Source: Patescibacteria group bacterium
GTDB taxonomy: Bacteria > Patescibacteriota > Patescibacteriia > 2-01-FULL-39-33
Direction: 5' to 3'
Assembly (NCBI GenBank): GCA_041662745.1
Contig: JBAZRV010000001.1
Coordinates: 1 to 32,000, forward strand
DNA length: 32,000 nt
The notes under the pieces are model-generated. The model was not told where the DNA came from, made no database searches, and worked only from the letters and a program-made list of their open reading frames with translations. Of this stretch, positions 3,001 to 27,250 are shown in pieces. Both the position numbers and the translations under genes were made by a program. The first letter of the stretch is position 1. Every line of letters begins with the position of its first letter.

Positions 3001-4229
3001 CCGAAACCGCTGCCATAAATAGTCAAATAATTGCCGACAGCGCCATAACCGACATCATCAGCCAAAGAATTAATATCATTCAAATCACTATCATTGTTAA
3101 GATCAAAAGACGGATCAAGCCAGTTAATCGCCGGATCGCCGACACAATAACAATTAGTACCGCAATAATTAGTGCAGTTAGAATCAGCGCAGGTTAGATC
3201 GTCAGGACGGGTGCAAGAAAAACCTGGGCAGTTCTGGGTACAACCGCCACCGCAATCAACGCCCTGCTCGTCTGCATCCTTAAAGCCATTAAAACAATGG
3301 GCGGGAGAAAATTTAACTTGCACCTTATTAGAATAATAAGATTTATCATTAGCAAAAGACCTTAAAGTGGTGGAAGTTAGGTTTTGATATTCAGTTGAAG
3401 AAGTATCCCAAGGAAAGGTGGTGGAGGCAGCATTGTATTGCCGGCCATTTATGATAACCGTTTGCGAATTAACATCAGTTGCGCCAACCTGAACTTCAGT
3501 TGAGCCATTCAAATCAAATAAAGATAAATCATTAACCGTATCTTCAGAATTATAAGAATATACCTTTACTTGCAGGGTGGGGCTTTGGGGAATTTGCACG
3601 CTACCGGAAAAACCGATTGAGCATTCGCGACTGCGACGTTGCGGCAACCAATTAGGAAAGGCGGGATCGGAAAACTCACAAATTGTCGCTCTCTTTTTGG
3701 TAGCATCAAATAAACAATCAACGCCGATACAACTCGGCACACAGGTTGAATCGGTTTGGGCGCAACTGCCCCAAATTTCATCGTCACCGCAGACTTGCTC
3801 TCCACCACAACCGCCGATAGTGCAGGATCTGACATCATCAGGAGTACACGTTTGTCCTTGCGGATTAAACCAATACATTAAGAAAGTAGTAACGGCAAAA
3901 GCGGAAAAAATGATCACTAAACCAATAATGGCATTATAAATGGTTCTCTTAGCCTTATTGACCTTATCTGGATCGCCGCCGGCCGTCATCCAAGTAAAAC
4001 CACCATAAATAATCAGCAACACCACGACTACTCCGAGCAAACCGAAAAGTATTTGCAAAATCCGCCCGATAATCATGCCTAAGCTGGCAGTGCCGAAAAC
4101 TCCCGACAAGCTTTCCAGTGTCGGAGCAGCCGGCGCCTGCGCCAAAACAAAATTACCAACAGCAAAAACCGCTGCCCAAACAAGCAGAGACAAAAATATT
4201 TTTAATTTTACTTTACGTTTTGAAGGCAT
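1..4229 (-). CDS. Giant secreted/cell-surface protein, 3' end beyond the window. It has a signal peptide, a T4SS-pilin-like (TrbC/VirB2-type) two-helix membrane module, Cys-rich repeats, IPT/TIG-like segments and a lamin-tail (LTD)-like domain
   Basis: Absent from the ORF track, which has no minus ORF in this frame, as expected for one uninterrupted frame with no stop in the window. My translation from ATG at 4229 gives MPSKRKVKLKIFLSLLVWAAVFAVGNFVLAQA...IIGRILQILFGLLGVVVVLLIIYGGFTWMTAGGDPDKVNKAKRTIYNAIIGLVIIFSAFAVTTFLM. Spot translations at 3869, 3059, 2300, 1988 and 1499 are all in the same frame with no stops. They include GNYLTIYGSGFGQVVGEVRF (IPT-like) and EEWVEIYNPTISDINLDNWRIIY...LKAGDYFIIS (LTD-like). 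Confidence 0.8.
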   Translation of the reverse strand, partial: MPSKRKVKLKIFLSLLVWAAVFAVGNFVLAQAPAAPTLESLSGVFGTASLGMIIGRILQILFGLLGVVVVLLIIYGGFTWMTAGGDPDKVNKAKRTIYNAIIGLVIIFSAFAVTTFLMYWFNPQGQTCTPDDVRSCTIGGCGGEQVCGDDEIWGSCAQTDSTCVPSCIGVDCLFDATKKRATICEFSDPAFPNWLPQRRSRECSIGFSGSVQIPQSPTLQVKVYSYNSEDTVNDLSLFDLNGSTEVQVGATDVNSQTVIINGRQYNAASTTFPWDTSSTEYQNLTSTTLRSFANDKSYYSNKVQVKFSPAHCFNGFKDADEQGVDCGGGCTQNCPGFSCTRPDDLTCADSNCTNYCGTNCYCVGDPAINWLDPSFDLNNDSDLNDINSLADDVGYGAVGNYLTIYGSGFGQVVGEVRFIAKSDGVITLAKLADCATAWQDNKIIVEVPAGLDSINDLPANYDIEVVNKTKPLIPLTSNSRPFLANNIELPGLCSIDPTSGLFPTSVDLTGRGFAADGTGKVIWYLRDTGTNFSNLVGITSTAATSWTNTSAKDVVPENKRGKSAVRVYNNGYSNSILFNIGNGSEGDPCGASVSNDPAVCLASSNDCKNNLACQGCSNKTEDVGKWFYRSDCDMDKNCTCQKPIDQECVYSSDPTQNAVTGCDLGGCLGKKTCRVDNTWGACVKDDPNCVSYLGVTPASLGLYSWSFLASLAPQSGRRCLSDLWHDGTCDPQNCGSDLGCDTVRSDEEWVEIYNPTISDINLDNWRIIYSGKQESINDLLNDNSAVTYYIPESVTLKAGDYFIISTSTLNPSNNFKLSKNQGTIAFVRGVSDEIADVVAYSSSTVAFSPGSWGRKIDGLDTGSANDFIYFSNSSVGQQNAVGKSSSTDHLVINEISLAHDACTCVPKAQLCTPNQVDLKSCPALGNCQQQRICQANGHWGGCEPLPNQVCYPTGQQASLSLYSWTFLATHELGPKKFYVVVDCSRSQTCKDEDNLPSPTPSDRWTTVIPGVTNSDACLNAAISARFNRPMNVQSLTGIDLVTPGWKNLKIYKKDGAGEWQAVVPNGSFSPYASRDFGSPDLFDYFEFMPQSLEADADYKIVLTSGVISYEGFPLYADGQALQSSGCDDPAKFPNAAFCWNFHTRSQSDNDKYCRVGCVHCSPQKFISRYYGQKQPHKSDVVSEDNVCIILNADTYNWSWREEEQASGVWSQGTANYSIVNDFVRSKATSTAQKETDWRTYQDALFAPSDKGYFRIASVELTTGNQGSCPGHNNFTDPIVIENPVCSVGDNGLAEKLQSPSPFRGTTTPACTNASLLALFSRNMVNTTLDKSRIKVQRCSGANAANDVLSTNISACTDVDFSRWQLDIFSYSHNSLSWQETVSASAEQYDSLAAEGIRLSPFNASGPVRL
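3876..4070 (-). repeat. Conserved pilin-like membrane module, copy 1 (paralogous to 7130-7327)
   Basis: About 65 aa are nearly identical to the upstream gene (YGGF[T/I]WMTAGGDPDKVNKAK..IYNAIIGL.IIF.AFA.TT). The DNA similarity is obvious by eye, for example ccgccggccgtcatccaa in both copies. Confidence 0.85.
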
Positions 4230-4249: not shown

Positions 4250-7200
4250 TTAATTACAGCCGGCGCCGTCGCAACACTTGCCCAAACAGCACTTAGTAAC
4301 TCCGCTGGCGTCAGCTATGGGGAAATCCTTAGTTATTACCCAACTGCCATATTTAAATTGAGTCGTATCAATGGAAGTGGCAATCGGTTCCATGCAAGTC
4401 TTGGTACAATTCGGTCTAGCGCCGACGATATCCTTACAATTCATATAGCCGAAGGAAACGGGATTAACCTTATTAACCGGAGAGGGCGTAATTAAACCCA
4501 AATCAGTAACGCAACCAGCGGTATTATATTCATCATTGATTTTATAACGGCATTTATTGAATTCAATATTAGCCTGATAGCCCCAACCTGATGGCAACGT
4601 TGCTGGATCAGCTGCCGCGTTCTGCGGACCGGCGCCCGGCAAGTAACAATTCTGCGTAATTGATTCTAAACCTGAACCGGCACCGGGCGCATAAGTTACC
4701 GCCTGATCGTAAGGATTATGATTAAGTAGGGCCGCGCTATAATCAATCAGGCCGTCACCCGAACCCTGACCGTAAACATCGCCTTCATCTAAATTTTTTA
4801 CGCTGGCCCAATAACCGACGGGATTAGCGTTTTGCGTCACTGTATTTAACATTAGGAAGCGGATATAAAAATCCCTGTCCGCCAAGCCCTCGCCATAACC
4901 GAATCCCGGCTTTAAGGTTACGGGATTCATTAAACGATCGAAAGAAAAAACAATGGGATCGCCAAAAGTTTCATTAATATCCTGCCCCCAACGTTGATCA
5001 CCCTTCGGCTGAATAGAAAATAACAATGGCGCCTTGTCGTCAATAACTGTTGAAACGAAAAATGACCAGGAAAAATCATCACCTTGAGCCGAATTAGTAT
5101 TATAAGTCGGTTTTTCAATGCCATTATCAATGGTAAAAGTATCGTTTACCAGGTAGGGATTAGCCAAGCCGGAGTAACCATAAAGCGTACCGGTGACGAC
5201 TCGCCCCGTATGGCCTTCGGCTATGCCCACTATTTTACCCTTATCATCGGTTGCGCTGGTATAGTTGCCATTTAAGGAGTTACCGGCCATATCCATGATA
5301 CCGACAGTGCTTTCTAAGGCAGCCTTCGGATAATAAACGCCATTCTTCTGACAGCGATCATAAGCGTCGCCGTCACATTGGCCGCCCCAACGCTTGCACC
5401 AGCTATTATCACTATCATCTATACCCCCACCTTTGCACGATTGCAAAACAGCCGCAGAAATTACCACCCTGAACGGCTCTGACTTAGCAGCCGCTCCAGT
5501 CGAAGGGTCAATCCAGCAATATCTTTCTTTGCCGCAAGCATTTTTGCCGCAAGCGTAAATACCGGTCATCTGTACTGTTTTGTATTGATTGGAAATTTCA
5601 TATTTTATCCTATCTGCCGCGATATCGGTCCAAACATCACCGATCTTATTTTGAACCTTAATGGTATTAGACAGACTCAGCGGGTTAACCGCTTTGTTAA
5701 AAGTAACGAAAAAAACGGAATTATTATAAGGATCCGGCGCCGCTCCTTGCGGAGTCTTAAGTTGAGCCTTATCTTTTCCGGATAAATCGCCAACAACCGT
5801 CATGGTGTTATCAATCGCCGATTTATCAATGCTCAAAGTATTAGCTCCCGCTCCCTTGGGTTCAATAATCAAATATCTAAACAAACCGATTGATGCGATA
5901 GAGACATTCACCGAATTCCTGGCTTCGGAGCTGATAATAGCACTACGCAAATTTTCCAACGTGTCGCTAACATTGGCCGACTTGATTACGGCGATGTAAT
6001 TGACAGTTACCGGCTGACCGTCAGCTCCGACTTGGGTTTTAGCGATATTGGCATCGTTAATATAAGCATCGGAAGCAAAAATAAAATTAATTTTACTGGT
6101 GCTGTTATTAATAGTATAAGTATCGCCGGTAACGGCTGTTTCGGCAGTGAACCTCCATTGGCTGCCCCGAGGGAACGTGCCACCCTCAGCGGCGATAGTT
6201 AAACCATTGCCCAAATCAAAACTTACGCCGTTTACTATAGTAAAAGGTTTACCGCTGAGCGGAGCCGGGGAATCGGCAGAAAATACAGCCGTTCTGCCGT
6301 CGCTGGAAACAGTAAAATTAGCAGTGCCCGCGCCGAGCTCAAAACCGCTTTGCGCGCTGACATAAGCCTTAAAGCCGGCAGGAATATTACCGCCGGAATT
6401 AATCAATTCCTTTCTCAGCGGCCGGCCCAAAAAATACTCGCCCTGCAGTTTGATTGGTTTCTCCGCCTTCAGATCAACCAAAGATTGAATCGTAGTGGTT
6501 GACCGTCCTAACGTAGACTGGGAAGATGCTGAATATAAATCAGGAAGGGTATCGGGGTAGGGATAAACCTCATACTTTACGATCTGCGGCGGATCCAAGT
6601 CCATTTTGCCGTTGGTTTTGAAGGACCAAGCAAAATAATCCATTTTCCATAACTTAAAGATTGATTCGCCGGTGGAAGAGGCAATGATGCCGTTCTTTAA
6701 AGTTACCATGAACTCTCGATTGGCGTTATCCTCTTTGCCTAAAAATGATTTAGTCATGAAAACAAAGGTTTTGGCATTGCCCGGAGTTTGAGTAACGGTT
6801 GTATTGGCACCAGCAAAAACCTGAGCAGTGAAATCGCCTGTTCCTAAGCATTTACGCGGAGTGGAGGCCGTATCAGCTTCACAAATTTCAATATTATTGC
6901 TAGCGCTATTAGAACAATAACCCTCGGCATTGGGGACGCAAATACTATCCGATTTAATATTTGATTTAAAAGTTACGACAATTCTGGTGTCAATTGACAC
7001 ATCCGCCTGATTAGGCGCAGGATAAACGCTTTCAATCGGCCCATTGCCGATGCCGCCTCGCCCCCAATCATCCGGTCCGCCCGGTATGCCTCCGCCTCCG
7101 CCCGCGCCGCCGCCTCTTGGACCGAACAATCCCATCAGCCAAGTAGTAATGGCAAAGGCCGCGAAAATGATTATTAAACCGATAATAGCGTTATAAATGA

Positions 7201-7567
7201 TTTTTTTGGCTTTATTGACTTTGTCCGGATCTCCGCCGGCCGTCATCCAAATAAAACCGCCATAAATAATAAGTAATAGTACGATTACGCCCAATAAACC
7301 AAAAATAACCTGCAAAACCCGGCCAATATAAGTAGTAAGCGAGGTTTCGGTAGCGATTCCGGCAGCTTGTCCGACAGCCTGCAAATTAGCGTCTTGCGCT
7401 AAGACCGAGCTGGCGAAAAGAAAACCGAAAAAAGAAATAAAAAACACCAAAATAAGCGCCAACGCTCGTTTGGTGTTTCCAGTCACGATCAAAAACGACT
7501 TTAAATTCCCGCCCCGGGCGGAATTTGATCGCGAGAACTTTTGCATAGGGACAAAAGCTTTTGACAT
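4250..7567 (-). CDS. Giant (1105 aa) secreted/cell-surface protein with an N-terminal T4SS-pilin-like membrane module, a Gly-rich linker, bacterial Ig-like (SbsA/Big_5-type) segments and a Cys-rich C-terminus
   Basis: ORF track. Signal peptide ALALILVFFISFFGFLFASSVLAQDA, then two TM helices flanking TAGGDPDKVNKAK, then GGGAGGGGGIPGG. Ig-like motifs are VYPAPNQADVSIDTRIVVTFKSNI, VFFVTFNKAVNPLSL and IVFSFDRLMNPVTL. The protein ends KCCLGKCCDGAGCN. It lies 20 nt upstream of the paralog at 4229. Confidence 0.85.
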   Translation of the reverse strand: MSKAFVPMQKFSRSNSARGGNLKSFLIVTGNTKRALALILVFFISFFGFLFASSVLAQDANLQAVGQAAGIATETSLTTYIGRVLQVIFGLLGVIVLLLIIYGGFIWMTAGGDPDKVNKAKKIIYNAIIGLIIIFAAFAITTWLMGLFGPRGGGAGGGGGIPGGPDDWGRGGIGNGPIESVYPAPNQADVSIDTRIVVTFKSNIKSDSICVPNAEGYCSNSASNNIEICEADTASTPRKCLGTGDFTAQVFAGANTTVTQTPGNAKTFVFMTKSFLGKEDNANREFMVTLKNGIIASSTGESIFKLWKMDYFAWSFKTNGKMDLDPPQIVKYEVYPYPDTLPDLYSASSQSTLGRSTTTIQSLVDLKAEKPIKLQGEYFLGRPLRKELINSGGNIPAGFKAYVSAQSGFELGAGTANFTVSSDGRTAVFSADSPAPLSGKPFTIVNGVSFDLGNGLTIAAEGGTFPRGSQWRFTAETAVTGDTYTINNSTSKINFIFASDAYINDANIAKTQVGADGQPVTVNYIAVIKSANVSDTLENLRSAIISSEARNSVNVSIASIGLFRYLIIEPKGAGANTLSIDKSAIDNTMTVVGDLSGKDKAQLKTPQGAAPDPYNNSVFFVTFNKAVNPLSLSNTIKVQNKIGDVWTDIAADRIKYEISNQYKTVQMTGIYACGKNACGKERYCWIDPSTGAAAKSEPFRVVISAAVLQSCKGGGIDDSDNSWCKRWGGQCDGDAYDRCQKNGVYYPKAALESTVGIMDMAGNSLNGNYTSATDDKGKIVGIAEGHTGRVVTGTLYGYSGLANPYLVNDTFTIDNGIEKPTYNTNSAQGDDFSWSFFVSTVIDDKAPLLFSIQPKGDQRWGQDINETFGDPIVFSFDRLMNPVTLKPGFGYGEGLADRDFYIRFLMLNTVTQNANPVGYWASVKNLDEGDVYGQGSGDGLIDYSAALLNHNPYDQAVTYAPGAGSGLESITQNCYLPGAGPQNAAADPATLPSGWGYQANIEFNKCRYKINDEYNTAGCVTDLGLITPSPVNKVNPVSFGYMNCKDIVGARPNCTKTCMEPIATSIDTTQFKYGSWVITKDFPIADASGVTKCCLGKCCDGAGCN
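7130..7327 (-). repeat. Conserved pilin-like membrane module, copy 2 (paralogous to 3876-4070)
   Basis: Same motif block as copy 1. The rest of the two proteins is divergent. Confidence 0.85.
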
Positions 7568-13587: not shown

Positions 13588-13600
13588 CCTATTACCCAAT

Positions 13601-13633
13601 AAAAACAACCGCCAAATGGCGGTTGTTTTTATT
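13601..13633. terminator. Bidirectional rho-independent terminator between convergent genes
   Basis: AACAACCGCC-aaat-GGCGGTTGTT, a 10-bp stem flanked by an A-run and a T-run. Confidence 0.8.
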
Positions 13634-13640
13634 ATTATCT

Positions 13641-14429
13641 CTATCTTCTTTTATGATGCTTATGAGACGGCATTTTAGGCAATGCTTGCGACCCCAACCA
13701 GGCTAATTCAAACAAGGAAACGAAAGTTTCGTAAATATTTTTATCCTCAATAATCACGCCGTTTAATTTATCCTTCAGCGAGGCAATCCGGACCTTATTA
13801 TCAAAAAAAGCGATATCGCAATTAATCGGGAATCTATCAGCCGAAATTCTTAATCGTTCATCAAGCGGACTGGGATGAGCGCGATCCTCGCCTTCCTTTA
13901 AAGTAAATATGGCTTTAGTTTTTGTTTTGCTGGCTACTCGATCTTGGTAAGCTTTATTGACTTCTTCTGCCGAGTACACTTTGCGCAAATCATCCAACGA
14001 GAAAAAGGCGCGGATAAGCTGTGATTTGGAAGACATCTGCTCTTGCACCATCGTTCGCAAGCCTTCTTTGCCTTCAAAAAACCTAACCACCGGCTTATTC
14101 TCCTGCTTATTGTAAATCGCTCGCAATTGCGGCATCAAATCATTAATCATTTTTTGCTTTTCTTCTATCTCTGCCTTTTCTAATTCCAGCGCGCTAATAA
14201 TCATTTCCGGCGATTCGGCAATGTAGCGGACTTTTTTATCTTTGCCGGCATAAGTGCTGCATAAGCCTTTTTTGATCAAAGAATCCAAAATCACATAAGT
14301 GGTCGGCCGATTAACGCCGGCTTTTTTGGAAATATCCTGCACTGAAGCTTGGCCCAATTCCAAAGTAGCCAAATAAACTTTGGCTTCTTTGTCGGATAAA
14401 CCGATTTTTTTCAATTCATTTATAAACAT
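13641..14429 (-). CDS. TrmB-family transcriptional regulator
   Basis: N-terminal winged HTH LGLSDKEAKVYLATLELGQASVQDISKKAGVNRPTTYVILDSLIKKGL, plus a C-terminal TrmB-type sensor-like domain. Confidence 0.8.
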   Translation of the reverse strand: MFINELKKIGLSDKEAKVYLATLELGQASVQDISKKAGVNRPTTYVILDSLIKKGLCSTYAGKDKKVRYIAESPEMIISALELEKAEIEEKQKMINDLMPQLRAIYNKQENKPVVRFFEGKEGLRTMVQEQMSSKSQLIRAFFSLDDLRKVYSAEEVNKAYQDRVASKTKTKAIFTLKEGEDRAHPSPLDERLRISADRFPINCDIAFFDNKVRIASLKDKLNGVIIEDKNIYETFVSLFELAWLGSQALPKMPSHKHHKRR

Positions 14430-14471
14430 ATCTAGTATAATTAATGTCTATATTATTTTAGCTTAAATTCA

Positions 14472-14517
14472 TTTTTTAAAAAAGAGGGGGCGCTTCCGAA
14501 CTCGTCGGAGCGCCCCT
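14472..14517 (-). terminator. Rho-independent terminator ending the leftward accessory transcript
   Basis: Minus strand reads GGGGCGCTCCGA-cgagt-TCGGAAGCGCCCCC followed by TCTTTTTT. Confidence 0.8.
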
Positions 14518-14844
14518 TAGGTACCATTAATGTTCTTGTCTACTGACTGCTAGCCGGTTCTTATTATTGCCCCGGTAGGCAGTCATCGCACAGTCTTTTT
14601 TGACTTTTTTGACCCTTTTTGCGAGTCTTGAGCCTTCAGAGATTCAATCATTGTTTAGATCAACCGAGTCCGCCCATAGCTAAGCTACTCCTTTCTGATT
14701 CAGTGGTGTAACGGTTAGATAGCGATCACTCCAAGCCCCGACGCGCGCCAGATCCAGATTTGAACCGGAATCATGGCGCAGAGGGTGGGTGGAGTTATCC
14801 GCTACCCATAACCATCTCCTTTCTGCGGTTGTGGCTATTGCCGA
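14518..14844 (-). ncRNA. Structured ~330-nt 3' tail or ncRNA of the leftward small-gene transcript
   Basis: No ORF longer than 22 aa on the minus strand. Contains the tRNA-like minihelix (14745-14779), the hairpin GACTGC..CCGG/CCGG..GCAGTC (about 14541-14581), a duplicated CAGAAAGGAG..TATGGG..GCGGA motif and three A-tracts. Confidence 0.35.
14745..14779 (-). other. tRNA-like acceptor/T-arm minihelix (not a complete tRNA)
   Basis: Minus strand reads GCGCCA-t-GA-t-TCCGG-TTCAAAT-CTGGA-TC-TGGCGC. That is 13 bp closed by a canonical 7-nt T-loop sequence. One G-U pair would be an A-C mismatch on the plus strand. There is no D or anticodon arm and no CCA. Confidence 0.4.
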
Positions 14845-15072
14845 TTACTTCTTGTTAAACGCCGCCTTCATCATAAAAACAACCACCGCCACCACCAGTC
14901 CGAGCTGAATCGCCTGCATCGCCAATGGCCCCAATTCAGCAAAGAGTTGATTACAGGCATCAGCCAAGACTCCTGGAAACAAACGGACAAACACCAGCGA
15001 AGTGCCAATACCTGCCAATGTTCCCAGAAACCGTTGCGGCGTGCCAAAGAAAAAACGCAAATAGCTATTCAT
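14845..15072 (-). CDS. Small (75 aa) hydrophobic membrane protein
   Basis: Internal ATG at 15072 within track ORF 14845-15171, preceded by GGGGGGAA, with its start 1 nt after the upstream TAA stop (15074-15076). Sequence MNSYLRFFFGTPQRFLGTLAGIGTSLVFVRLF...LGLVVAVVVFMMKAAFNKK, with two predicted TM segments. Confidence 0.5.
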   Translation of the reverse strand: MNSYLRFFFGTPQRFLGTLAGIGTSLVFVRLFPGVLADACNQLFAELGPLAMQAIQLGLVVAVVVFMMKAAFNKK

Positions 15073-15073
15073 T

Positions 15074-15253
15074 TTATTCCCCCCGTTGCTTTTCCACCGC
15101 GCGTTTGTCGCGTTGGCGGTCGTATCCCTTCTTGCCCAGTTTACTGCCATGGACACCGCCGGTTTTGACAATCGTCGGCCCGCGCTGTTTCAAAAGCAAC
15201 TCCATCGGTTTAATAACCCCAACTAAAATAGTTCCTTTTTTGCTGTGACTCAT
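15074..15253 (-). CDS. Small (59 aa) basic protein
   Basis: Below the track cutoff, translated by hand: MSHSKKGTILVGVIKPMELLLKQRGPTIVKTGGVHGSKLGKKGYDRQRDKRAVEKQRGE. Strong SD AAAAGGAGAG 4 nt before the ATG. Confidence 0.5.
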   Translation of the reverse strand: MSHSKKGTILVGVIKPMELLLKQRGPTIVKTGGVHGSKLGKKGYDRQRDKRAVEKQRGE

Positions 15254-15319
15254 AATTCTCTCCTTTTAAAGTTCTTTAGCTTCTAGTCAGCCCTATACTG
15301 ACTTTTAGCTTGATATATC

Positions 15320-15348
15320 AGTATATCACATAGTATAAATTTTGTCAA
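15320..15348 (-). promoter_or_regulatory. Near-consensus sigma70 promoter (leftward)
   Basis: Minus strand TTGACA, 17 nt, TGtGaTATACT. Confidence 0.65.
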
Positions 15349-15434
15349 CAGCAATTAACAAAAACTTATCCACAGCCCCTATTTAAAACCAAGAAAAAAC
15401 GAATGATTAACAGCTTAAAAGTGTTTTTGATACG

Positions 15435-15460
15435 ATTATGTCAGCTTTAACTGACATAAT
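15435..15460. promoter_or_regulatory. Perfect inverted repeat (10-bp arms, 6-bp spacer) between the divergent promoters
   Basis: ATTATGTCAG-ctttaa-CTGACATAAT. Confidence 0.55.
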
Positions 15461-15468
15461 TATAATAG

Positions 15469-15498
15469 AATATTTTATCTAAATTTAGATAAAATATT
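15469..15498. promoter_or_regulatory. Perfect 30-bp palindrome between the divergent promoters (candidate operator)
   Basis: AATATTTTATCTAAA/TTTAGATAAAATATT, ending 30 bp upstream of the -35 of the rightward promoter. Confidence 0.55.
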
Positions 15499-15528
15499 AA
15501 TAAAAAAATAAATTATTTATAATAACCA

Positions 15529-15557
15529 TTGACAAAATAATTTTAGTGTGATACAAT
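15529..15557 (+). promoter_or_regulatory. Near-consensus sigma70 promoter (rightward) driving the large RNA
   Basis: TTGACA, 17 nt, TGaTACAAT. Its first 10 nt, TTGACAAAAT, are identical to the leftward promoter and to the promoter at 27146-27174. Confidence 0.65.
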
Positions 15558-15562
15558 GATTT

Positions 15563-16790
15563 ATCAACCTGGTGAAACCAATGTCAAAACTTTCCGACAA
15601 GGAACAAAACCCAGGGTGATAGATTGAACTAAAATTGACAATCAAACAACCTCAAAATCCGTTGATAACCCGATTAAACTGATTAAAAACGGATTAAGTT
15701 CTGCCAAATTAGACTGGATTTTCCAGTTTAATCGGCTTAACTGGAGGCTAGCAAGCTTGCTCCTAAATGAGCTTCTGCCCCGTTTCTTGCAAACGGGGTG
15801 AAATAAAGCCTACTATCTCCGGCTGTCGGAAAGATTTATTTGATATGGGTCCCCGAATATTTTTGCTTCGACCTAACGGTCTTAACGCAAAAATTTCGAG
15901 GATGACATTGACGGATAATCAGCTAAATAAAACTTGTCGTGCTAAGAACCTTAAATAATAATATTACTGACGCGTCTGTGCCGAATTGCCTTTCATAAAT
16001 TATGAAAAATAATTCGGTGCAGATGCGCGCAGGCATCCGAGCACTACCTTAGAAAAGCTGGCCATCCAAATACGACACCTGATCAGGTCGTTGAGGGAAA
16101 CTCGGCAGTAAGGTAACACAGCCATATAGGGCTGTTCTAAACTTCCGTCATTTCATCGTCATGGCGATGGATGTGATGCGGAAGGACACCTCCTCATTAC
16201 CACAGCGGTAAAAGACCGCTGGAGGAGCTGAATGGATGCCTGGTAAGCATCCGGATTATCCTGAACAGGCTAAGGGGGCAAGCAGATCCGCCAAGAAGGT
16301 GGAGCGGCTGATGGCAAAGCTTAAGCTTGCATCCCATAAAACGCCTAATGTTCAAGATAATCCACTGCGCAAGAATAGTTTCTTAAGGGACGAGAAGAGA
16401 TGTATTACGGCTTTAGCTGAGTAGGATGGAAAAAACCATCGCAAAAAGCAGCCGATCTCTGATCGTGCCCGAGGTTCCTCCGGCAACCGTAATGGCGGTT
16501 GCATGAGAGAAGTCCGACCGATCGGGCTTCAAAGCTATAGGTCGAGGCAGCGGCCATAATAGTAAAAAGACGGGGAGATGACAGCTGAAAATGCTGTTTC
16601 TTGACCCCGCCTGCGATGAAAACCTCATCGCCACGTGGAACTACGCCGAGATCGTAGGAAGCGCTCACGGCTAATGTGAGATGGGTGTGAGGACACCAAG
16701 GAGGCTGGCTAACAGCAACCACTGCACGGTTTTTCTGGTGATTTTTACAGTCGGGAAAAATCACCGTTCCACTTTAGCGAATAAATTATT
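15563..16790 (+). ncRNA. Candidate large (~1.2 kb) structured noncoding RNA or giant structured leader, family unknown
   Basis: No credible ORF. There are at least 10 strong local helices: 15778-15798, 15971-16027, 16142-16184, 16190-16227, 16234-16252, 16483-16502, 16509-16530, 16571-16609, 16613-16631 and 16737-16765. G-U pairs make the structure strand-specific. Interleaved helices at 15656-15735. The exact ends are unknown. Confidence 0.45.
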
Positions 16791-16812
16791 TGTTCACTAA
16801 AGCGGACATTAA
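16737..16812 (+). repeat. Hairpin plus 44-nt box module, copy 1
   Basis: GGTGATTTTT-acagtcggg-AAAAATCACC, then 3 nt, then CCACTTTAGCGAATAAATTATTTGTTCACTAAAGCGGACATTA. The downstream ATG is at 16844. Confidence 0.7.
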
Positions 16813-16843
16813 AAAACCCAATAACCACAGGGAGGATACAATC

Positions 16844-17275
16844 ATGGAAAATCAAGCAACTGGCTTGGTTAATGACCAACTTCGCTCCCAACTGGTAATA
16901 TTAGTCAAACACGGGATTATGCCTCAGCCCAAACCGCTAAAAAATATGGTGCGGGCCAGAAGGATTAATTTTGAAGAAGATGGTGCTAGCAATTTTGGTT
17001 ATTCTGAAATTGTGCTCTGCGTTAATGGCCGAGCTCATTTGAAGGTCAGTCATAGCTGGTTGGAAAATGGCGACCATGATGAAACTAACAATTCAGCAAC
17101 GGTAACTCGTTGCGATTGCCATAACTACCATGATCTGCTGATTAACGCAGAACATGCGGATTTGATCGAAAAATTTCTGCAAACTGATGAAGACCAAAAA
17201 TTAGAACAAACATTTGCACCATTTACATTTCCGTGTGACTATTTACAAAACCAACAACCAGGAGATTTATCATGA
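16844..17275 (+). CDS. Hypothetical protein (143 aa)
   Basis: ATG at 16844 with SD GGGAGGA 7 nt upstream. The track's TTG start at 16790 falls inside the conserved box. I recognise no family. Confidence 0.6.
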   Translation: MENQATGLVNDQLRSQLVILVKHGIMPQPKPLKNMVRARRINFEEDGASNFGYSEIVLCVNGRAHLKVSHSWLENGDHDETNNSATVTRCDCHNYHDLLINAEHADLIEKFLQTDEDQKLEQTFAPFTFPCDYLQNQQPGDLS

Positions 17276-17565
17276 GCGATACGAGACAGAAGTGCCAGTT
17301 GTGCGGTGGTTTGGGTATGAATGGGGCCAAGTGGCTGGTTAAGACGAACGACGGCAAATCCGTCCAGGTGCATAAGCCCTGCGGCGAAAAGCTGATCGAA
17401 TCGGCACCAGCTGAGGTAGGCGCTAAACTCGTCCCGAGTCCCGAGCTGAAAGCCGAATGGACCGCCAAGCGGACCGAACGACAAGCCAGGGACTTTTGGG
17501 CGAGCCGATGCCCGCAACTACTTGAGATCAAGAAAGATCTTGAGCAAAAGGAGAACACGACATGA
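17272..17565 (+). CDS. Hypothetical protein (97 aa) with an N-terminal CxxC...C zinc-ribbon-like pattern
   Basis: ATGA start/stop overlap with the upstream ORF, and SD AGGAG. Sequence KCQLCGGLG...VHKPCGEKL with a basic helical C-terminus. Confidence 0.6.
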   Translation: MSDTRQKCQLCGGLGMNGAKWLVKTNDGKSVQVHKPCGEKLIESAPAEVGAKLVPSPELKAEWTAKRTERQARDFWASRCPQLLEIKKDLEQKENTT

Positions 17566-17586
17566 CCTAGCACCCTTACAGGTTTT

Positions 17587-17658
17587 GATGATTTACCCTT
17601 AAAAAATCATCAGCCCACTTGAGTGAATAAATTATTTGTTCATTAAAGCGGACGTTAC
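17587..17658 (+). repeat. Hairpin plus 44-nt box module, copy 2
   Basis: GATGATTT-acccttaaa-AAATCATC, then 3 nt, then CCACTTGAGTGAATAAATTATTTGTTCATTAAAGCGGACGTTA. That is 4 mismatches to copy 1 over 44 nt, with the same hairpin-to-box spacing. Confidence 0.7.
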
Positions 17659-17682
17659 TAAACATCAAAAAGAGGGATAACC

Positions 17683-17889
17683 ATGAATGATGAAGACAAA
17701 CTTCGCCGACACCAAATTCGACAACTCAGTCAGGCCAAAGACCATGCCAAACGTCGGCAAATAGGTCGGAAAAGACAAGCCGGTACCGAAGACCTGACCA
17801 AAAACCAATTTGAGAAAAAATTTCCGCACCTATCAATCAAAGTTTGGTATGCCCAGCGCTGCTTTGTTGGCAAGGGTTACGATTGGTAA
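17683..17889 (+). CDS. Hypothetical small basic protein (68 aa)
   Basis: ORF track. SD AGAGGGA upstream and a terminator downstream. Confidence 0.5.
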   Translation: MNDEDKLRRHQIRQLSQAKDHAKRRQIGRKRQAGTEDLTKNQFEKKFPHLSIKVWYAQRCFVGKGYDW

Positions 17890-17910
17890 AAAATGTAACT
17901 TTTTAAATTA

Positions 17911-17941
17911 AAAAGACGAGGCGTCAAAACCTCGTCTTTTA
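17911..17941. terminator. Bidirectional rho-independent terminator (accessory cassette versus leuS)
   Basis: AAAAGACGAGG-cgtcaaaa-CCTCGTCTTTT. Confidence 0.85.
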
Positions 17942-17958
17942 TAATTGAATAATTAAAA

Positions 17959-20877
17959 TCAAACCACAATACTGACCAACTTGCCTTTAATAAAAATAAC
18001 TTTCTTGGGCTCGCCAGTCAAATATCTTTTAACGTTTGCATCATTAAGCGCCGCGGCCTTGGCTGTCTCCTCCGTTACATCCGTCGGTAAAACCAATTTT
18101 GCTCTAATTTTGCCATTAACCTGCACTGGAATTTCCTTTTCAGCATCAACGACTTTAGCCGGATCATACTCTGGCCATTTTTCTTTAAAAATACTAGTTT
18201 CGTGCCCGAGCTGATACCATAATTCTTCACACATATGTGGAGCAAAAGGAGATAAGATAATTAGAAACGATTTTTTGATAAATTCTAAAGAAGCCTCATC
18301 TATTTTTTGTTTATCTACTTTTTTTTCTACTTCATTTTTCCCTGTATTCCAAAAATTTATCAAAATCATAAATTGAGAAATCGCGGTATTAAACTTCATT
18401 TCTTCTATATCTTCCCCAGCTTTCTTTATTATCCTATGCATTTCTCTAATCATCCAACCTTCATTAGGTGATATCTTATTCCACCAATCTTTATCCTGAT
18501 AAAATTCCCAAACCTTATTCAAAAACCGATGCACGCCCAAAATATTTTTTGTACTCCAGGGTTTCATATCTTCCAAGGGGCCCATAAACATTTCATACAT
18601 GCGGAAAGTGTCGGCGCCATATTCTTTCAGGATGTCATCGGGATTAACCACATTGCCGCGAGACTTAGACATCTTCTCTCCATCCTCTCCCAAAATCAAA
18701 CCCTGATTAACCAGCTTGGCAAACGGCTCCTCAAACGGCACTGCTTCAATATCAAATAGAACCATATTCCAGAACCGAGCATAAAGCAAATGCAAAACCG
18801 CATGCTCAGCACCGCCCAAATACAAATCAACCGGCAACCAATACTTCAATTTTTCTTGATCGGCGAAAGCTTTGTCATTGTGCGAATCAATATATCTTAA
18901 CCAATACCAAGAAGAACCGGCCCATTGGGGCATAGTGTTGGTTTCGCGCTTAGCCGGACCGCCGCAGGTAGGGCAAGTCGTATTAACCCACTCGTCAATG
19001 GTCGCGAGCGGCGACTCGCCCGTTCCGGTCGGTTCGTATTTTTCTACTTCCGGCAAAGTCAAAGGCAAGTCTTTTTCCTCAAGCGGCACAATACCGCATT
19101 TCTCGCAGTGAACTAACGGAATCGGCTCGCCCCAATAGCGTTGGCGCGAAAATACCCAGTCGCGCAATTTATAATTAATCGCTTTCTGTCCGCAGCCCTT
19201 CTCTTCCAGCCAATCAGTCATCTTACCAATTGCTTTGGCCGGCGCCAAACCATTTAAAAATTCAGAATTAACCATCAAGCCATTATCAACATCGGTATAG
19301 GCGATATCGCCTTTTTTAATCCGCTCCAACCAAATATCCATTTCGGCATGAACCATAAAATCCAAAGTCAGCTCGTCCGGATTCTTCCATAAAATCTCAT
19401 TCTGAGCTTCCTTTTCCTCGTCAGAAATATCCACCTGTTCCTCATCAATTAAATCAAACTCTACTAAGTTGGTATAAGAAACACGATTAACATCTTTGTG
19501 ATTAGCAAAATATTCGGCTCGCACCTGTCCGCCCAAAATCTTGCCATTAGCAAGATTCTTATAACCGGTTTCTTCCAGAACTTCCCGCTTGGCCGCTGCC
19601 AGTAAATCCTCATCTTGGCCAACACCGCCCATCGGAAAAGTAACCCAGTTATATTTGTGGGAATGCAAGCATAAGATTTTTCCGGTTTTAGGATTTCTAA
19701 CCACTACTTGGACGTTATGCCTCTCAATTTTTTCCTTGCCAACGACCGGTGGGTTCCTTTTATCGATCCTCTCCGGAATAATCACTTCAATAATGGGCAA
19801 ATCAAACTTCTTGGCAAACTCGAAATCCCGCTCATCATGCGCCGGCACCGCCATAATCGCGCCCGTGCCATAGGTCGCCAAAACATAATCGGAAATCCAG
19901 ATAGGAATTTCAGTATTATTGACGGGATTAATCGCCTTAATGCCTTTTAATTCAACGCCGGTTTTGTCTTTATTCAATTCTGTCCTTTCCAAATCTGATT
20001 TATTTTTAGCAGTTACAATATAATCTTCAACTTCAGGAAAGTTACTGATTTTATCTTTCAATTCTTGAACCAATTTATGCTCCGGCGCCAAAACCATATA
20101 AGTCGCGCCGAATAAAGTGTCGGGGCGCGTAGTATAAACCCTGATTTTTTCATCACTATCGGCAATCTTAAAATCAACTTCCGCTCCCTCGCTTCGGCCG
20201 ATCCAATTTCTCTGCAAAGTTTTGATTGATTCCGGCCAAGCCAGTTTTTCAACTCCCTCTAACAATCTATCGGCATAAGCGGTAATCTTTAACATCCATT
20301 GGCGCATATCGCGGCGCTCCACTGCCGTACCGCAACGATCGCATTTGCCGTCTTTGACTTCTTCATTAGCTAAACCGGTCTTGCAAGACGGACAGAAATT
20401 TATCGGTATGGTGGCTTCATAAGCCAAGCCCTTTTTAAATAATTGCAAAAAAATCCACTGCGTCCATTTGTAATATTTCGGGTCAGTCGTATCCACTTCC
20501 CTGTCCCAATCATAGGAGAATCCCAGTGATTGGATTTGGCGTTTGAAAGTAGCGATATTGGCCTCGGTCGTAATTCGCGGATGCGTGCCGGTTTTAATGG
20601 CATAATTTTCGGCCGGCAAACCAAAGGCGTCCCAACCCATGGGGTGTAAGACATTAAAACCCTTGAGACGCAAATAACGGGAATAAATGTCAGTTGCCGT
20701 ATAGCCTTCCGGATGACCGACATGGAGTCCGGCTCCTGACGGATAAGGGAACATATCCAAAACATACTTTTTAGGCTTGACACTAAAATCTTCGGCCTGA
20801 TCAATTTTGGTGTTCAACCACTTGTCTTGCCATTTTTTTTCTCCGCCCGAAATGATGAATTCTTTGTATGAAGCCAT
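17959..20877 (-). CDS. leuS: Leucine--tRNA ligase carrying an inserted Nudix-hydrolase-like domain
   Basis: HVGHPEGY (HIGH), CP1 editing domain ([25 protein letters not shown]), KMSKS, and [17 protein letters not shown]. At 972 aa it is long for a bacterial LeuRS (from memory). Residues ~368-525 contain the Nudix box [23 protein letters not shown]. Confidence 0.95.
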
Positions 20878-27080: not shown

Positions 27081-27145
27081 TGTAAAGTCCTCCTTCGGCC
27101 ATTACAGCCGAATTCAACTCGGGCTGATTCCCGAATTAATATATA

Positions 27146-27174
27146 ATTATAGCAAATTTAAACAATTTTGTCAA
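27146..27174 (-). promoter_or_regulatory. Perfect consensus sigma70 promoter of the GC-rich operon
   Basis: Minus strand TTGACA, 17 nt, TATAAT. Begins TTGACAAAAT like the promoters at 15320 and 15529. Confidence 0.65.
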
Positions 27175-27212
27175 TACCTTTATCCACAACTGACATTTAT
27201 CTAAATTTAAAC

Positions 27213-27250
27213 AAAAAAATCGCCCAACCGCTAAAGCCGGACGATTTTTT
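27213..27250 (-). terminator. Probable terminator after the por operon and membrane-protein gene
   Basis: Imperfect hairpin AAATCG..CCG/CGG..CGATTT flanked by A7 and T6 runs. Confidence 0.45.

Follow-up and report, generated by a model that had tools for sequence, protein, structure and literature searches.

A long modular structured RNA, probably an mRNA leader, beside a TrmB-type regulator gene in Patescibacteria

Introduction

Large bacterial RNAs with a conserved structure are rare, and OLE, GOLLD, ROOL and HEARO have each opened new biology. GOLLD and ROOL typically lie in a phage and tRNA context, and what OLE does is so far understood in part (bioRxiv 10.1101/2024.12.08.627333). Here, we analyze a 32,000-nucleotide (nt) stretch of DNA, the window (contig JBAZRV010000001.1, positions 1 to 32,000), from a metagenome-assembled genome of Patescibacteria (Candidate Phyla Radiation, CPR), a group nearly unexplored for RNA biology. 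Our subject is the region 15558-16843 on its plus strand, in which a first-pass annotation, made from the sequence alone, had seen a candidate large structured RNA of unrecognized family, with a size and architecture in the range of the GOLLD/ROOL/OLE class of giant RNAs, which tend to occur in phage-like DNA near tRNA-like elements. On balance, we read it as a long, modular, structured 5′ leader of a polycistronic transcript for small proteins. It represents a genuinely new, uncatalogued structured RNA family with a narrow known distribution in a few ultrasmall (CPR) bacteria.

In size and ornateness, this RNA is like GOLLD, ROOL and OLE, while its genomic logic is that of a very long operon leader. 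With GOLLD and ROOL it shares the size range (over 500-800 nt), the many helices and the lack of protein-coding capacity, but it comes without a tRNA, phage similarity or a covariance model (CM) match. Like OLE, it is a large, ornate chromosomal RNA of several hundred nt that is restricted to one bacterial group and adjoins genes for small partner-like proteins, one of them here membrane-like. However, the architecture of OLE is well conserved along its full length, whereas this leader is mosaic, varies in length between strains, is continuous with the downstream mRNA, and has neighboring proteins unrelated to those of OLE. Known cis-acting operon leaders are about 70-300 nt long and form single families. 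Like the longer of these (T-box, EAR, put and ribosomal-protein leaders), the RNA described here starts at an operon promoter, precedes the first cistron, and has conserved helices with mutually exclusive pairings and no need of a separate terminator; it differs in being 0.7-1.5 kb long and multidomain, with swappable insertions.

A structured, non-coding region downstream of a conserved promoter

The leader promoter is as close to consensus as the first-pass annotation had claimed (Table 1), and it is invariant across the six homologous loci of alignment A4. The leader sits within a GC-richer island (~14600-17800), with the TrmB-family gene on one side and the LeuRS gene on the other, and a GC fraction of 0.49-0.50 over 16000-16800, compared with 0.27-0.42 in the DNA on both sides, bears out the reported GC richness of its 3′ two thirds. 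When folded as plus-strand 300-nt subwindows, 15300-16950 gives z scores of -4.6 to -8.5 relative to dinucleotide shuffles, while the flanking coding DNA gives +0.5 to -1.4 in the same test. The dense local helices described from sequence are also recovered, with all ten present in the minimum free energy (MFE) fold within 1-2 nt of the proposed coordinates.

The plus strand folds with an MFE of -480.4 kcal/mol, compared with -466.4 for the minus strand, and in the three conserved structures described below, G-U cells outnumber A-C cells by 25:3, 39:12 and 42:13. Specificity of the structure for the plus strand is supported by these ratios and by RNAalifold, clearly for Domain 2 (D2; -106.9 for plus, -82.0 for minus) and slightly for the two-hairpin module, but not for Domain 1 (D1). 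The orientation of the promoter decides for the plus strand.

Over its ~1.28 kb, the region has no convincing open reading frame (ORF), as had been stated. The only plus-strand ORFs of at least 60 amino acids (aa) within it are 15767-15958 (63 aa) and 16236-16424 (62 aa), and the minus strand holds two GTG ORFs not mentioned in the first pass, 16405-16764 (119 aa) and 16413-16634 (73 aa). None of the four has a match in Pfam, PHROG, NCBIfam or PADLOC, and no frame of at least 30 aa carries a protein-family signal. A decayed or unrecognized coding region, either a pseudogene or small proteins read from the 62-63-aa frames or the 119-aa minus-strand frame, has in its favor that one gene caller calls the 62-aa ORF on the same contig and that other loci have coding stretches at the same position. 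However, in L092, the closest relative, a stop truncates the 62-aa ORF to 12 codons, homologs do not preserve the frame of the 63-aa ORF, and the substitutions that separate the window from locus L084 lack codon periodicity in D2 (p = 0.38), with leader insertions and deletions (indels) of 1, 2, 5, 7 and 8 nt. In the same comparison, two adjacent genes are codon-periodic (p = 4e-4 for the 143-aa gene and 1e-6 for the other), with indels of 3 nt or none. Comparison of sequences thus identifies the leader region as non-coding, and a coding explanation is effectively excluded.

The region also matches no catalogued RNA family. An Rfam 15 scan of the whole window at gathering scores gave no match, relaxing the threshold to E = 10 over 15200-17000 brought up nothing beyond chance microRNA and long non-coding RNA matches, and a scan of eight homologous loci up to E = 5 gave chance matches with nothing consistent among them. 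This agrees with the first-pass annotation, which had not recognized it as rRNA, RNase P, tmRNA, SRP, 6S, a group I/II intron or a known riboswitch. Group I and II introns, RNase P, tmRNA, SRP, 6S, riboswitches, T-box and ROOL are rejected on the lack of an Rfam CM match, as is GOLLD, for which the window, 15200-17000 and the eight homologous loci were covered. OLE likewise has no CM match, and the neighboring small proteins, among which oapA/oapB-type products would be expected, are without any family match; HEARO (omega RNA) has neither a CM match nor an IscB, IsrB or TnpB ORF in 13600-18000. The phage-like setting near tRNA-like elements is not borne out either. ARAGORN finds no tRNA or tmRNA in the 32 kb, sensitive blastn of the window against 50,697 phage records gives no match, and searches of IMG/VR with the module patterns and for relatives of the CCHC protein encoded downstream found none. 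The neighbors are housekeeping genes (HisRS, signal peptidase, LytR, a TrmB-family regulator, LeuRS, an ankyrin protein and UvrA), making this a chromosomal, TrmB-linked locus. The literature, searched for TrmB and for structured RNAs in Patescibacteria, offered nothing relevant.

Compensatory changes in two domains of the leader

Ten homologous loci from related Patescibacteria support a real plus-strand RNA, the structure of which has very probably been under selection. The contig of the window is also deposited as ENA ERZ27249449 k141_167583 (L001), with three differences in 19.5 kb and none in the leader region. A LeuRS synteny scan of GTDB genomes gave 80 loci, of which only L004 (LeuRS 80% identical) has the island, in a different form. 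Nine close homologs of the 97-aa CCHC protein led to contigs L084-L092, which carry recognizable versions of the region, and a metagenome scan with a pattern from the 62-nt repeat of the module gave six loci and added L095, L096 and L098; its matches L093 and L097 were rejected as chance matches inside coding DNA. Distant loci (L099, L102, L103, L105 and near-duplicates) were fetched by a CCHC profile search.

D1 (alignment A5, seven loci) has a nearly invariant 5′ end and small hairpins at 15759-15772 and 15777-15799. It is closed by the pairing of CUUUCCGACA (15590-15599) with UGUCGGAAAG (15824-15833), which the helix 15741-15756/15807-15822 directly adjoins, and its variable interior holds hairpins at the same positions with unrelated sequences. 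In A5, 92% of cells are paired, 13 pairs are changed on both sides, and 0 of 500 shuffles reached the observed covariation score. At the nucleotide level, D1 is 89% identical to its counterpart in L084, compared with 70-71% for the neighboring genes.

D2 (alignment A6, six loci) combines the helices listed in Table 1 with the conserved unpaired motifs GGACAAC, GCUGAAYGG and CCACUGCG, around an interior (16046-16183) that is strain-specific. Here, too, 92% of cells are paired, nine pairs are double-changed, and 0 of 500 shuffles reached the observed score. The helix 16033-16045/16224-16239, for instance, is formed by GGCAUCC/GGAUGCC in the window and by GGCGUCC/GGGCGCC in L084. The GGAUGCC strand (16234-16240) can pair either with the upstream GGCAUCC (16032-16038) or with the downstream GCAUCC (16247-16252), and the local hairpin formed in the latter case is kept with other sequences in L084 (GGGCGC/GCGUUC) and L004 (CGGGUG/CGCCCG). 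Therefore, both of two mutually exclusive pairings are conserved, an arrangement that suggests a two-state switch in D2.

Taken over D1, D2 and the module, 92-93% of cells are paired compared with 85-88% in shuffles, and sliding the 3′ partner by 1-3 columns lowers pairing to 25-54% (35-54% in D1). Covariation among homologs, a check that the first pass had called for, is thus found as compensatory changes in the helices of all three, in alignments of 6-7 sequences. Across the aligned loci, D1, D2 and the 80-nt module are kept by compensatory substitutions, with strain-specific hairpin blocks between and inside them.

A two-hairpin module precedes the cistrons

The window contains a 62-nt direct repeat (16756-16817 and 17602-17663, 84% identical) that is part of an 80-nt element, the module, made up of two hairpins. 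Hairpin A (16736-16766) covaries, with stems GCCGAU/AUCGGC, GAUGAU/AUCAUC, GGUGAU/AUCACC and GCCGAG/CUCGGC, while hairpin B is conserved in sequence and has a fixed A-C mismatch and G-U pairs within ~17 base pairs (bp). Together, the two hairpins are closed by GUUU/AAAC, the closure of copy 1 being GGUUUUU/AAAAACC (16728-16734/16812-16818). The paired fraction is 93%, and 0 of 500 shuffles reached the observed covariation score. Copy 1 ends 24 nt upstream of the ATG of the 143-aa gene (16844), and in between lies a good Shine-Dalgarno sequence (SD), GGGAGGA, 7 nt before this ATG.

A covariance model of the module (R1) scores 72-90 bits in every close locus, often in 2-3 copies. Diverged copies precede ORFs in L086, L089, L087, L090 and L084, and R1 detects weak ones in the distant L105/L106 (28 bits, E 0.004) and L099 (22 bits, E 0.055). 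With weak matches included (22-28 bits, E 0.004-0.06), the module stands ahead of ORFs in 14 loci. The window, which carries the D1 closing helices, the D2 helices and motifs, and the module upstream of cistrons, by which we define this TrmB-linked leader family, is itself the reference sequence of A5, A6 and A10, and R1 scores its two modules at 84-85 bits. In the loci compared, the module recurs ahead of cistrons and the whole unit always lies beside a TrmB-type regulator gene.

In phage T7 early mRNA, intercistronic hairpins are processed by RNase III, and the Mu Com protein acts on a hairpin of the mom mRNA. Like these, the module is intercistronic, lies just upstream of an SD, has fixed internal mismatches, and co-occurs with a small zinc-finger protein; in contrast, it has no sequence relationship to them, and its hairpin B is just ~17 bp. 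By analogy, the module resembles, in position and shape, an RNase III-type processing site or a protein-binding translational operator. Its reading as an integron attC site was rejected, given that no locus has an integrase, that the core AGTGAAC...GTTCAYT departs from RYYYAAC...GTTRRRY, and that the G-U pairs point to an RNA hairpin.

Mosaic build of the leader

Only ~60% of the leader, namely D1, D2 and the module, recurs in relatives. Locus L092, from the same sample, is ~99% identical in the shared blocks and is without 16263-16716 and without the 143-aa gene, so that its D2 closing helix runs straight into the module and then the 97-aa gene. The accessory region between D2 and the module is absent in L092, L086, L004 and L098, and L095, L085 and L102 share stretches of it (16509-16563 and 16660-16733); aligned with D2, it gives nothing significant, just the short common motifs CCACUGC and GGACACC. 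Leader length ranges from ~0.2 kb (L089) to 1.5 kb (L084). The homologous leaders have excess folding energy in their 5′ parts, and those of L084 and L085 additionally hold ORFs, including small T2SSF-domain proteins, with folding z near 0 in these stretches. This mosaic build between strains, together with the continuity with the downstream ORFs, is what removes the single giant RNA of the original proposal. What stands of that interpretation is a plus-strand structured non-coding RNA with a strong promoter and no Rfam family, and what falls is one conserved 1.2-kb architecture.

The same order of elements extends to more distant relatives. Every locus, including those with 36-56% identity in the CCHC protein, has the TrmB gene, a gap of 0.9-1.7 kb without called genes, and then the CCHC gene with small unannotated ORFs. 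In L102, the module and the long hairpin are still present, as are the promoter region, the 5′ end and portions of the accessory region. The gaps of L099, L103 and L105 each contain a consensus promoter, downstream of which folding is strong (z down to -10). A TrmB-family gene adjoins the locus wherever the flank is available (seen in L099-L103, L105 and L106), and its coding sequence is alignable in L004/L094, L095 and L098.

Block-wise replacement and indels between close strains, and segments without a homolog, also speak for a different explanation, in which the region would be a fast-evolving spacer without RNA function, a recombination hot spot whose blocks are DNA operators of the TrmB regulator and whose hairpins are selfish or incidental palindromic insertions. 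This explanation could further draw on the ORFs, including mini-T2SSF genes, that occupy the same place in L084 and L085, on the good folding of both DNA strands, on the frequency of TGTCA/TGACA palindromes near promoters in the window and in distant loci, and on closing helices that never vary. However, we consider it quite unlikely, because many D1, D2 and module helices have compensatory double changes, because G-U exceeds A-C 3- to 8-fold, which is unexpected for DNA palindromes, and because some conserved elements are as much as 800 nt beyond the start site, a distance too great for operators. D2 is, moreover, strongly strand-asymmetric, and the pairing of module hairpin A is kept across four stem sequences.

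Leader or free-standing RNA

No terminator-like or promoter-like site is found on the plus strand over 16050-16843. With neither of these ahead of the downstream ORFs, the region is therefore placed as the 5′ leader of an mRNA, and it is likely that the RNA works as such rather than as a free RNA. The transcript would run from the 15529-15557 promoter through the 143-aa ORF, the 97-aa CCHC gene and the 68-aa basic-protein gene. The CCHC protein, the only one of these found in all loci, has the invariant residues C8, C11, H34 and C37, and its family comprises at least 58 representative clusters in a profile search of 1.84 billion representative proteins. An AlphaFold 2 model (predicted local distance difference test score, 87.5) consists of a small beta zinc domain and two long helices, with no significant match in the PDB (best L24e, B-box and ZZ domains, E > 0.3), and the protein belongs to no Pfam, NCBIfam or PADLOC family. 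The 143-aa protein looked like an orphan in a word-indexed search; local BLASTP then gave homologs.

A free-standing large RNA would require the leader to be cut from the mRNA, for example at the module, leaving D1 and D2 (~0.7-0.8 kb) as a stable, trans-acting molecule. By analogy with OLE and the Oap proteins, such an RNA could scaffold a ribonucleoprotein (RNP) with the CCHC and small basic proteins. Several features fit: conserved long-range closing helices around variable peripheral hairpins, together with conserved unpaired motifs, are typical of tertiary-structured RNAs; D1 is more conserved than the flanking genes; the RNA and the CCHC protein strictly co-occur; the best, insignificant fold matches of this protein are to the rRNA-binding L24e, and one homolog is annotated L24E by the Joint Genome Institute (JGI); and the module resembles an intercistronic processing site. 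However, D2 is followed by no terminator or defined 3′ end, and in L092 and L086 the module and gene follow it directly. D2 is also unrecognizable in L102, L085 and L089, the leader is unrecognizable by sequence in more distant protein-bearing loci, and it is mosaic even between strains of one sample. We hold a free RNA to be unlikely. Quite unlikely as well is a more specific proposal, that D1 and D2 form the core of a Patescibacteria-specific RNP, released at the module, assembled with the L24e-like CCHC and arginine-rich proteins, provided by its swappable hairpin blocks with specificity or docking, and placed under TrmB-type control. If true, it would be an OLE-like RNP in ultrasmall episymbiotic bacteria, with an RNA part that is modular and rapidly diversifying.

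As a leader, the RNA would act in cis, on the operon that it heads. Transcription would be set by the two conserved palindromes that separate the divergent promoters, presumably via the TrmB-type protein; the competing pairings of 16234-16240 in D2 may work as a switch; and the module before each cistron or cistron group could be a site of processing, stabilization or translation control. The module is also a plausible binding site for the co-conserved CCHC protein, its likely partner. Any specific control mechanism along these lines is tentative, and no ligand, tRNA-binding or antitermination motif was identified in the leader.

Several points weigh against the leader reading as a whole. The evidence on the leader RNA is wholly computational, and the alignments are shallow, with 6-7 sequences (4-5 truly distinct) from one narrow clade. 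Pairs were counted in the very alignments that had yielded the structures, so the shuffle counts are indicative and do not represent probabilities. The closing helices of D1 and D2 are invariant and hence uninformative either way, RNAalifold slightly favors the minus strand for D1, and the D1 5′ element TGTCAAAACTTTCCGACA, an imperfect palindrome, could be a DNA operator. At 55% protein identity (L102), the sequence similarity of D1 and D2 is already fading, and in L099, L103 and L105 none can be detected. The CCHC protein is tied to the RNA just by co-occurrence and an insignificant L24e fold resemblance. Finally, a 1.2-kb leader far exceeds the length that, to our knowledge, any cis-regulatory leader requires.

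The interest of the locus is thus threefold: its RNA family is new and includes a candidate two-state switch, its short module flags the starts of cistrons in divergent genomes, and its long structured RNA belongs to a conserved trio with a TrmB-type regulator gene and an unannotated CCHC family (at least 58 clusters). Structured RNAs do not usually have such a mosaic build that varies between strains, which, if functional, would mean that RNA domains are shuffled like gene cassettes. Even if it is merely a stabilizing leader, it annotates many "gene-less" gaps beside trmB-like genes in CPR genomes and provides a covariance model of the module.

Control region, flanking genes and additional features

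Table 1. Positions of the leader, its parts and the neighboring features in the window.
Feature	Position	Strand	Basis or remarks
TrmB-family winged-helix regulator gene, 262 aa	13641-14429	-	Pfam TrmB E = 2.7e-15
75-aa hydrophobic protein, left-arm operon	14845-15072	-	ORF; read from divergent promoter
59-aa basic protein, left-arm operon	15074-15253	-	ORF; read from divergent promoter
Divergent sigma-70-type promoter for left arm, TTGACA-17-TATACT with TG	15320-15348	-	Kept in A4; quality equals that of the 15529-15557 promoter
Inter-promoter control region	15366-15498		Invariant columns in A4
TTATCCACA box, perfect, DnaA-box-like	15366-15374		A4-invariant
Palindrome ATGTCAGCTTTAACTGACAT	15438-15457		A4-invariant
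Perfect 30-nt palindrome	15469-15498		Part of the conserved control region
Leader/operon promoter, TTGACA-17-TACAAT with upstream TG (TGaTACAAT)	15529-15557	+	11/12 consensus positions
D1	15558-15845	+	A5, 7 loci
Helix in D1	15777-15799	+	MFE fold, 9 bp
Strain-specific 78-nt insertion, self-contained hairpin	15846-15923	+	Not in L092, L091, L084; no homolog found
D2	15924-16370	+	A6, 6 loci
D2 long hairpin	15972-16026	+	A6; MFE fold, 17+7 bp, 4 G-U
D2 closing helix GCGCAG/CUGCGC	16027-16032/16365-16370	+	A6
D2 helix	16033-16045/16224-16239	+	Compensatory changes
D2 helix	16190-16195/16222-16227	+	A6
D2 competing local hairpin	16234-16239/16247-16252	+	Alternative to long-range helix
D2 helix	16253-16260/16356-16363	+	Compensated in L092: GGAUUAUC/GAUAAUCC to GGAUUGUC/GGCAAUCC
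Accessory region, string of ~9 short hairpins	16371-16733	+	MFE fold
Helix in accessory region	16509-16530	+	MFE fold, 9 bp
Module copy 1	16734-16820	+	A3/A10; R1 84 bits
Helix in module copy 1	16736-16766	+	MFE fold, 10 bp
143-aa ORF, variable cassette gene	16844-17275	+	Homologs in L084, L085, L087 (local BLASTP); absent in L092, L004
97-aa CCHC zinc-ribbon protein	17272-17565	+	The one protein common to all loci
Module copy 2	17584-17666	+	R1 84.8 bits; 16 nt upstream of 68-aa ORF start
68-aa arginine/lysine-rich ORF	17683-17889	+	Homologs in L004, L084
Inverted repeat at convergent ends of operon and LeuRS gene; likely two-way terminator	17896-17955		Repeat search and sequence
LeuRS gene with inserted NUDIX domain	17959-20877	-	Pfam
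Leader segment	15558-15620		Counterparts in 7 loci
Leader segment	15621-15770		Counterparts in 2 loci
Leader segment	15771-15845		Counterparts in 6 loci
Leader segment	15846-15923		No counterpart in fetched loci
Leader segment	15924-16045		Counterparts in 8 loci, twice in L084
Leader segment	16046-16183		No counterpart in fetched loci; replaced in L092 by an unrelated block of similar length
Leader segment	16184-16262		Counterparts in 3 loci
Leader segment	16263-16400		Counterpart in 1 locus
Leader segment	16401-16521		No counterpart in fetched loci
Leader segment	16522-16736		Counterparts in L095; weaker in L085, L102

The motifs of the control region between the two promoters are candidate operator sites, and ATGTCAG-N6-CTGACAT, together with the motifs of the island promoter region, is invariant in the six loci of A4. 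A perfect TTATCCACA lies next to a consensus promoter twice in the window (15366 and 27180; regions 15366-15498 and 27130-27222), each time with a similar TTTATCTAAATTTA palindrome. These repeated motifs are probably shared regulator sites rather than a replication origin, because there is no excess of DnaA boxes in the window. A chromosomal replication origin was rejected, as no box cluster is present; the window has 24 DnaA boxes (at most 1 mismatch) compared with 28 expected, and the island has one perfect box.

On the left arm, homologs of the 59-aa protein are plus-strand ORFs of the right arm in L004 (15945-16211) and L084 (2839-2991), which means that there has been movement of genes from one divergent operon to the other. 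The left-arm genes are separated from the TrmB start by ~400 nt without an ORF (14436-14845, minus strand), which are kept in L004, L098 and L095. RNAalifold gives a rod-like structure at ~14720-14805, a good intrinsic terminator (stem 14486-14517) ends the region, and two repeats, CAGAAAGGAG-N-UAUGGG, combine an SD-like sequence with AUG (mini-ORFs of 5-6 codons). An Rfam scan of 14400-15320 up to E = 10 returned chance matches only, and a tRNA-like reading of the hairpin GGUUCAAAUCU (~14750-14780, minus strand) was rejected, its T-loop-like UUCAAAU not being conserved in homologs.

The locus holds a fixed chromosomal position in the TrmB-LeuRS interval in the window and L004, and probably also in L084, where the place of LeuRS is taken by a partial 725-aa gene. 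In the LeuRS of the window, a NUDIX hydrolase domain is inserted at residues 388-514 (Pfam E = 6e-13), an unusual domain fusion; with 967 aa, the L004 ortholog is about as long and, as judged from the printed sequence rather than a domain scan, reads through the NUDIX segment. A defense system was also considered, and PADLOC gave no match apart from the helix-turn-helix of TrmB.

The T2SSF cassette of L084 (1039-1335) and L085 (1101-1430) is an ORF of ~100 aa with a single T2SSF (PilC/GspF platform) domain, and the window is without it. In L099, L102, L103, L105 and L106, the arrangement of TrmB gene, gap and CCHC gene is kept down to 36% protein identity though the outer flanking genes differ, and it looks like a widespread unannotated CPR locus type. 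Elsewhere in the window, a 188-nt direct repeat (3884-4071 and 7141-7328, 79% identical) has one copy in the 5′ part of a 1105-aa T4SS-pilin-domain gene (4250-7567, minus strand), while its second copy lies shortly past the end of this gene, and it may represent a duplicated pilin N-terminal segment.

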